DNA of 64,000 bases from Escherichia phage NHEP11. Location of the stretch: sequence record PQ511149.1; one strand, written 5' to 3'. A model generated the notes under the pieces. The model searched no databases. It was not told where the DNA came from and worked only from the letters and a program-made list of their open reading frames with translations. The translations under genes were made by a program, and so were the position numbers. Shown here in pieces: positions 4,371-5,650 of this stretch (position 1 is its first letter; every line of letters begins with the position of its first letter).

Positions 4371-5186
4371 TTAACAATTTACAGACCAAGTCCATTTGGA
4401 CGAATCTAAAGGAAAGTTTTGAATCGTCCACCATGGCTGCATATTGGTTGGTCCTGGGGTTCGCCAGGTATACGGATTCGACGGAGTGCCAATTTGATTA
4501 GGCCATGCACCTGGACTTGTTGCACCAGATTCTTTAAGCAAATCCGCCAATCGTTTTAAAAGGTCTTCACGATCTGAATCTGAATTATGCTCTGGTGGAA
4601 CCAAACGAGATTCAATATCATCCCACGTGTGTACACGTTGTGCAGTACGAGGAATGGCATCACGTTCACCACGAGCCAACCAATAAATCGGTACATTAAG
4701 AATTTCTGCTGCATGGTCACAGTGATGAGCTAAATCGTCAACGTAACAAATCACGTTATATTTTGTTTTAGCTAGTTCGAATAATTGTTCCTTTGAAGAA
4801 TCATGTCCACACATCATTACTTCAGAAAAGGCGCCTGGGAACAAAGCATTCAAATTAAATTGTCTATTCAATCGAGCATCAATTGAATCACCTAGTGCCG
4901 TCACGGCTACAAAATTATAGTCTTCTTTTAGTTTATTGATAACTCGAAGAGCATCCGAATAAGGCGCTAAGTAACGAATAAAATCAGAGCGATTATATTT
5001 TTCTATTAATTGTTTACCGAGGTTATCGTCGGTATTGAATAGTTCACCAGGAGAAATAAATTTTTCGTCCTGAATCATTTTTAAAATATGTTCTAATGGA
5101 AGATTATATTTTTGGGCAAAATATGGAAGTCCAGATTGCCAGCTTAAACATACACCATCAATATCAGTCAAAATAGTAGGCTTCAT
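4371..5186 (-). CDS. HAD-like hydrolase fold protein (30.2 position)
   Basis: 271 aa; N-terminal TDIDGV motif typical of HAD motif I; Trp/Pro-rich C-terminal tail. Confidence 0.5.
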   Translation of the reverse strand: MKPTILTDIDGVCLSWQSGLPYFAQKYNLPLEHILKMIQDEKFISPGELFNTDDNLGKQLIEKYNRSDFIRYLAPYSDALRVINKLKEDYNFVAVTALGDSIDARLNRQFNLNALFPGAFSEVMMCGHDSSKEQLFELAKTKYNVICYVDDLAHHCDHAAEILNVPIYWLARGERDAIPRTAQRVHTWDDIESRLVPPEHNSDSDREDLLKRLADLLKESGATSPGAWPNQIGTPSNPYTWRTPGPTNMQPWWTIQNFPLDSSKWTWSVNC

Positions 5187-5650
5187 AAAGAGTCTCTTAA
5201 TAGGTTTAACACATCAATAAATTCAGCTTCGGTTAGTATTGTATCATCTTTTGTTAGACCACTAGCCATGCTGTGCTTCAAAATTTTTCCTTTAGAGGCT
5301 TGTAAGGCATCACGAAACCCCTTGTTTTGGATCGCTGCTTCAAAATATGCATTTGTGTATAATTCTTTCCACGCTGGGGAGTATCTTGAAAACGGAACTC
5401 CAAGCCAGAAGAGGGTCCCACGGTCCTGAGCTCTAGCATAAGACCTTCCAGCTTGTTGGGCGGCAAGCCCGGATAACCCAAATATACGTTTTTGTTGTTC
5501 AACGTTTTTCACCTTACATCCTTGGAGAAATCCTTCAAGACCTCCGAATTGAATACCATCCATAACAAAAGGCCATTGAGCAAAGTTACTTAATGCGCAT
5601 GACGGCCATTTGAAATTGCTTCTTATTTCTAATTCACACATCTTTAACAC
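5183..5650 (-). CDS. NADAR/YbiA-like domain protein (30.3 position)
   Basis: 155 aa; LSNFAQWPFVMDG resembles E. coli YbiA FSNFAAWPIKVDG core motif. Confidence 0.5.
   Translation of the reverse strand: MLKMCELEIRSNFKWPSCALSNFAQWPFVMDGIQFGGLEGFLQGCKVKNVEQQKRIFGLSGLAAQQAGRSYARAQDRGTLFWLGVPFSRYSPAWKELYTNAYFEAAIQNKGFRDALQASKGKILKHSMASGLTKDDTILTEAEFIDVLNLLRDSL

Follow-up and report, generated by a model that had tools for sequence, protein, structure and literature searches.

An intact adfN (gene 30.3) in the RB69-like Escherichia phage NHEP11: a probable NADAR-type counter to the DarTG1 defence

One of the questions raised by the ligase region of Escherichia phage NHEP11 (PQ511149.1; 64,000 nucleotides, the whole stretch analysed here and referred to as the window) is what a small protein carrying a YbiA-like motif is doing in a phage, and whether this particular copy can still do it. 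The earlier note on this DNA, made from its letters, had read the open reading frame (ORF) in question as a NADAR/YbiA-like hydrolase that might serve as a counter-defence against DarT toxins, and this reading has been upheld by 97% identity of the product to gp30.3 (AdfN) of phage T4, by a family-level profile comparison, by the predicted fold, and by the catalytic residues. We put the probability that the window gene is a functional adfN at about 0.92. The function itself is already known, having been in print in 2023-2025, and the biology adds nothing beyond the published AdfN work. The present analysis establishes orthology, intactness, the relationship to NADAR proteins in profile and fold, and the presence of residues E36, K43 and H123; the enzymatic activity, the guanine specificity and the anti-DarTG1 phenotype are taken from published work on T4.

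Aligned without gaps, the window protein and T4 gp30.3 are identical at 147 of 152 residues, and they share E36, K43 and H123, the C-terminal helix and the neighbouring genes 30.2 and 30.4. They differ in five conservative substitutions (S2C, R11K, R51K, V120I and I125M) and in genomic background, as T4 is a Tequatrovirus whereas the window, to judge from its sequence, belongs to an RB69-like T-even phage (Mosigvirus). Database searches give as best matches RB69-like phages classed as Mosigvirus, Bas46 and Bas47 among them, and the DNA of the ligase gene, 30.1, 30.2 and 30.8 is 97-98% identical to RB69 and 55-69% identical to T4. The gene order alt, alt.1, 30, 30.1, 30.2, 30.3, 30.4 and onward is the same in T4 and RB69, with the gene lying between 30.2 and 30.4 near the ligase gene, in the 30.x cluster to which the earlier note had assigned it. 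Orthology to T4 30.3 is thus what sequence and conserved synteny indicate, and the reading frame carries no frameshift and keeps the C-terminal helix (residues 138-151 of the AlphaFold2 model; 5189..5230, minus strand). It is here that the window and RB69 part company: although their flanks are 97-98% identical, and the proteins 97% identical across the 137 residues that they share, a T insertion at nucleotide 411 of RB69 30.3 leads to a stop and to the loss of the last 15 residues including this helix, whereas the window gene lacks the insertion and is intact. The window AdfN is 96-97% identical to its full-length counterparts in Bas46 and Bas47.

That the ORF is real, far beyond chance, is confirmed by its match to the Pfam family PF08010 (Phage_30_3; score 233 bits, gathering threshold 36, E 1e-69, all 138 positions of the model covered) and by homologues of 30.3 in 1,510 phage records. 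Its extent has to be corrected, as the 155-codon ORF called by program from a GTG (5183..5650, minus strand), which the earlier note had adopted, almost certainly begins too early. T4 and RB69 share with the window the ATG at 5641, while the GTG codon at 5650 is GCA in T4; it is from this ATG that the 459-nucleotide gene is annotated in T4 (NC_000866) and in NHEP10, a phage 99.7% identical, and homologues of the gp30.3 family start M-x-E-L-E-I. For these reasons the coding sequence of adfN, encoding a predicted phage-type NADAR ADP-ribosyl glycohydrolase, is placed at 5183..5641 on the minus strand (152 amino acids plus stop), and the three extra codons GTG TTA AAG (5642..5650, minus strand), which fall within the 3' end of gene 30.4, probably do not contribute to the gp30.3 protein. 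At ATGTGTGA the ATG of adfN shares nucleotides with the stop codon of 30.4, the gene upstream, and at ATGA the stop codon of adfN does so with the start codon of 30.2. Overlapping starts and stops of this kind are packing typical of T4 early-gene clusters.

Membership of the NADAR superfamily is less readily seen, as Pfam holds PF08010 and the direct NADAR model, PF08719, as separate families, and the window protein gives no match to PF08719 even at E values up to 10. A search with the single sequence by phmmer against the sequences of the Protein Data Bank likewise found no NADAR protein, its only match being an irrelevant one at E 0.27, and a scan of the window protein with PADLOC matched no model. 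A family profile is required. Of 68 sequences aligned as the gp30.3 family, 15 individually match PF08719 (best E 3.4e-6); the profile of this alignment matches E. coli YbiA (2b3w) at E 0.0028, and hhalign, set to compare it with an alignment of 32 YbiA-family sequences, returned a probability of 97.0% (E 9.3e-11) over 125 columns. The AlphaFold2 model built on the 68-sequence alignment is a confident one (predicted local distance difference test 95.1, predicted template-modelling score 0.90); it has the helical core with small flanking sheets of the YbiA fold, and in structure comparison it matched solely NADAR structures, three of them by Foldseek at probabilities of 0.99-1.00. As the window protein has no Pfam NADAR match on its own, it is the profile-profile comparison and the predicted structure that carry the superfamily link; together they place gp30.3 within the NADAR superfamily and portray its product as a minimal, single-domain NADAR-fold glycohydrolase. 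The earlier note had made its reading depend on a significant NADAR profile hit; the plain PF08719 scan yields a false negative here, and the hit appears at the level of the family. A plain Pfam NADAR scan thus misses the gp30.3 family.

The residues expected of such an enzyme are also in place. The motif from which the earlier note had started, LSNFAQWPFVMDG (residues 17-29 counted from the ATG; 5555..5593, minus strand), is the N-terminal NADAR signature; it aligns with FSNFAAWPIKVDG of E. coli YbiA and matches it at 8 of 13 positions, and L17, S18, N19, F20, F25 and D28 are invariant among the 68 family members. A real counter-defence gene was in this sense recovered, by a reading of sequence alone, from 13 residues. 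Downstream, the segment E36-G-F-L-Q-G-C-K43 (5513..5536, minus strand; Glu codon 5534..5536, Lys codon 5513..5515) contains the catalytic glutamate (E43 of PnNADAR, E36 of AdfN) and the lysine seven residues on (K43 of AdfN); hhalign pairs E36 with E48 and K43 with K55 of YbiA, and each of the two is kept by 90% or more of the 68 members. Alanine substitution of either, E36A or K43A, impairs T4 AdfN (PMC11825919). A histidine, H123 (codon 5273..5275, minus strand), which is invariant in 68 of 68 members, follows directly on the last predicted strand (residues 120-122), and at the last-strand position phage NADARs have been reported to carry His, YbiA-type proteins Glu, and DarG1-type proteins Asp (PMC11543638, PMC11125620, PMC12945103). 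The absence of conserved catalytic residues, which the earlier note had named as a possible objection, is thus not what is found.

What such a protein does has been worked out in T4. Johannesman et al. (Nat Commun 2025) mapped resistance to DarTG1 to the 3' part of 30.3 by means of recombinants between RB69 and T2 or T4, and renamed the gene adfN (PMC11825919). Deletion of adfN makes T4 and T2 sensitive to DarTG1, and its expression rescues RB69, so that T4 AdfN is both necessary and sufficient for resistance of T-even phages to this system; the rescue is impaired by E36A, by K43A and by an RB69-like truncation (PMC11825919). AdfN does not bind DarT1; the purified protein strips ADP-ribose from DarT1-modified DNA, and the E36A variant does not (PMC11825919). 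The truncated T4 variant has reduced activity, the C-terminal helix being needed for full activity, and RB69, with its truncated AdfN, is sensitive to DarTG1 (PMC11825919). Another group, working on the same T4 protein, found that gp30.3 hydrolyses ADP-ribosylated guanine (G-ADPr) on DNA in vitro and is inactive on the thymine-linked form (PMC11125620), that it reverses G-ADPr on RNA in vitro (PMC11833690), and that it is inactive on cytosine-linked ADP-ribose (PMC12945103). Moreover, in a transposon screen (HIDEN-SEQ) insertions in 30.3 were lost on DarTG1 hosts, where the gene is conditionally essential (bioRxiv 10.1101/2025.11.20.689424). In the Toxins 2024 paper the construct of the T4 phage NADAR is given as 'gp30.3; residues 1-208' (PMC11125620), but T4 gp30.3 has 152 amino acids; 208 is the length of gp61.2 (AdfA), and '1-208' is possibly a typographical slip, the enzymatic result having been reproduced independently (PMC11825919).

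Carried over to NHEP11, the proposed course of events would be that DarT1 of the host stops the incoming phage DNA from replicating by ADP-ribosylating its guanines, that AdfN cleaves the ADP-ribose off the guanine base, and that replication then resumes, allowing the phage to plaque on hosts carrying DarTG1. AdfN would work enzymatically, as the host antitoxin DarG1 does, and without binding the toxin. A homologue of AdfA, the other published anti-DarT1 factor, is also encoded in the window (gene 61.2; 61577..62224, minus strand; 65% identical to T4 gp61.2). In the window protein NINRIAS aligns with T4 IINHIAS, an arginine standing in place of the T4 histidine that is needed for DarT1 binding, and AdfA of the Arg type neither binds nor neutralises DarT1 (PMC11825919). 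Bas46 and Bas47, the closest relatives of RB69, are resistant to DarTG1 despite an Arg-type, non-functional AdfA (PMC11825919). On its sequence the window AdfA is of this non-neutralising type, like that of RB69, Bas46 and Bas47, and because the co-resident AdfA is of this type, AdfN is probably the sole working anti-DarT1 factor of the window phage. This RB69-like phage, unlike RB69, is predicted to be resistant to DarTG1. Annotation pipelines label the gene 'hypothetical protein', and it can be renamed adfN, or NADAR ADP-ribosyl glycohydrolase.

Several observations weigh against this assignment. The activity of the NHEP11 allele is inferred from experiments that were all done on the 97%-identical T4 protein, from which it differs in the five substitutions given above, although all of these are conservative and none falls at a known catalytic residue. 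The window protein alone reaches neither the Pfam NADAR model nor any PADLOC model, and hhalign leaves a gap at the H123 segment, where the local register is ambiguous, so that the equation of H123 with the glutamate of the YbiA family (E125 of PnNADAR) is drawn from conservation and the literature. Finally, T4 AdfN does not protect uninfected E. coli against DarT1 and is of little help to phages other than T-even ones, and a further T-even factor or context may be required for its action.

The last of these points also separates AdfN from the host antitoxin, as T4 AdfN cannot serve as an antitoxin in uninfected cells. DarG1 proteins (the BC4488-type NADAR, including 8bat of Geobacter lovleyi and the NADAR of E. 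coli C7) have a catalytic Asp in the last strand where the window protein has His, and an N-terminal DNA-binding extension, whereas the window gene encodes the core domain only. It is moreover an orphan without an adjacent DarT1: no match to an ADP-ribosyltransferase was found among its neighbours, 30.2 (HAD-like) and 30.4, so that it does not qualify as a DarG1 antitoxin. From the YbiA-type proteins (E. coli YbiA, 2b3w; the Phytophthora NADAR, 8bau; PF08719) it stands apart by an identity of 17-21% and by the His that replaces their Glu.

Among the other roles that might be considered, the presence in one genome of three ADP-ribosyltransferases, as the earlier note had claimed, makes it natural to ask whether gp30.3 edits or reverses ADP-ribosylation written by the phage itself. 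The three are indeed all found in the window, as Alt (271..2358; PF03496, E 6e-28) and homologues of ModA (55912..56520; E 2e-21 against T4) and ModB (56578..57159; E 2e-28 against T4). However, the Alt and Mod enzymes modify arginine in proteins, and none of their genes adjoins 30.3, Alt being 2.8 kb off, past the ligase gene, and ModA and ModB 50 kb off. Distant members of the gp30.3 family, furthermore, occur in phages without an evident Alt/Mod-type transferase in the flanks examined. Every NADAR tested, that of T4 included, acts on base-linked ADP-ribose, with guanine as its target and no activity on thymine, cytosine or phosphate ends (PMC11125620, PMC11833690, PMC12945103), and with a published specificity for guanine-linked ADP-ribose on nucleic acids the editing role suggested in the earlier note finds no support and is highly improbable. 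Metabolic housekeeping of the YbiA kind, that is, an N-glycosidase clearing reactive intermediates of the riboflavin pathway, fares no better: YbiA is a metabolic N-glycosidase in a LexA-controlled operon, unlike the window gene, which reaches 12.3 bits on the YbiA equivalog TIGR02464, where the cut-off is 73.7 (E 0.15, residues 14-51 only), and has His in place of the family-defining Glu, and the DarTG1 phenotype of the T4 orthologue is clear (PMC11825919), all of which makes this role very unlikely. Less credible still is the notion that the window adfN is inactive and decaying like the RB69 copy; the RB69-like flanks and the frameshift in RB69 might invite it, but the T insertion is absent, all 152 residues are encoded, C-terminal helix included, and the nonsynonymous and synonymous divergence from T4 (dN 0.018, dS 0.27) points to purifying selection.

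A more substantial alternative concerns the substrate, as the main or an additional physiological target could be ADP-ribosylated guanosine in RNA, for example in tRNA, beyond DarT1-modified DNA. The reversal of G-ADPr on RNA by the T4 protein is compatible with it, but on RNA the DarG1-type NADAR is the more active of the two (PMC11833690), and DNA de-modification fully accounts for the DarTG1 phenotype. Genomic context offers a further hint: among 60 distant family loci taken from viral metagenomes (at most 47% identity; lineages not independent), tRNA genes lie within 5 kb at 24, and at about 15 the gene is embedded in a tRNA cluster on the same strand, often just upstream of tRNA-Arg(UCU), which is frequently found 30-900 bp downstream. 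Loci tied to this pattern are L030, L039-L042, L046, L051, L052, L056, L057, L071, L073, L074, L080 and L084; L007; and L011. The homologues of Aeromonas phage 31 and Ralstonia phage RSP15 likewise sit in tRNA clusters, and that of Brevundimonas phage Domovoi (L012) lies shortly upstream of an RNA ligase 2 gene, with one short ORF between. The window adfN, however, has no tRNA genes nearby, the loci in tRNA clusters are related by descent, so that independent events are overcounted, and no report was found in the literature of a defence in E. coli that ADP-ribosylates guanine in RNA. The tRNA-cluster association of distant members is a lead only, and an RNA substrate for the window protein is on balance quite improbable; the broader proposal that RNA (such as G-ADPr tRNA) provides gp30.3-type NADARs with a second natural substrate besides DNA and that, separately, adfN is exchanged among T-even genera as a small island of recombination is also unlikely, if a shade less so.

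The adfN of the window appears to have a history of its own. DNA identity to T4 is 94% in 30.3 (5183..5641) as against 59-69% in the ligase gene, 30.2, 30.4 and 30.6 (compared over 2602..7185), and the dS of 30.3 quoted above compares with about 1.85-2.0 in these four genes. Within 30.3 a central patch is T4-like while the ends are RB69-like, and milder reductions of dS against T4 are seen in gene 30.7 (0.55) and rIII (0.72). Because of the dS island and of the T4-like patch between RB69-like ends, these sequences suggest a recent recombinational exchange of this counter-defence gene between Tequatrovirus and Mosigvirus. Such exchange is the kind of recombination that was exploited in the laboratory to map the gene (PMC11825919). 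An overlapping gene was considered as the cause of the unusual nucleotide conservation, since T4 is annotated with an internal gene, 30.3', in an alternative frame, whose counterpart would lie at 5278..5502 (minus strand). This was rejected, as the ATG of 30.3' is ACG in the window, with a TTG remaining one codon later, and the frame has a stop in RB69. The overlapping ORF shows no conservation and is unlikely to be a genuine gene.

With regard to the neighbours, gene 30.2 (271 amino acids; 4371..5186, minus strand) adjoins 30.3, and its product starts MKPTILTDIDGV, which contains a DxDG motif. This motif is typical of HAD phosphatases. The product has a weak HAD match in Pfam (PF13419, E 0.021) and falls in a PHROG of unassigned function. 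It was considered as a conserved partner that might be the missing 'T-even factor', and set aside, as of the distant phages compared one, an Acinetobacter T4-like phage, keeps 30.2 linked to 30.3, whereas five others do not. A promoter and terminator scan of 2400..8300 returned 21 sites against 17.8 expected in shuffled sequence, which is no better and is uninformative on the transcription unit.

Two further observations were made in passing. Some metagenomic PF08010 proteins (P0129, P0149, P0160, P0187, P0189 and P0268) are tandem copies or fusions to unrelated domains, the partners being the C-terminal domain of D-Ala-D-Ala ligase, a GDSL lipase, prolipoprotein diacylglyceryl transferase (Lgt) and leucine-rich repeats of the BspA type; no coherent ADP-ribose theme emerges among these partners, and some may be gene-calling fusions. 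In addition, the window encodes a DAHP synthase of 330 amino acids (9301..10293, minus strand; PF00793, E 4e-75), likewise annotated in NHEP10, directly upstream of the dCMP deaminase gene in the sense of transcription, that is, at higher window coordinates. At this position T4 has no large gene, just the small ORFs cd.1-cd.5, and the DAHP synthase looks like an auxiliary gene of the aromatic-amino-acid pathway in this phage lineage.
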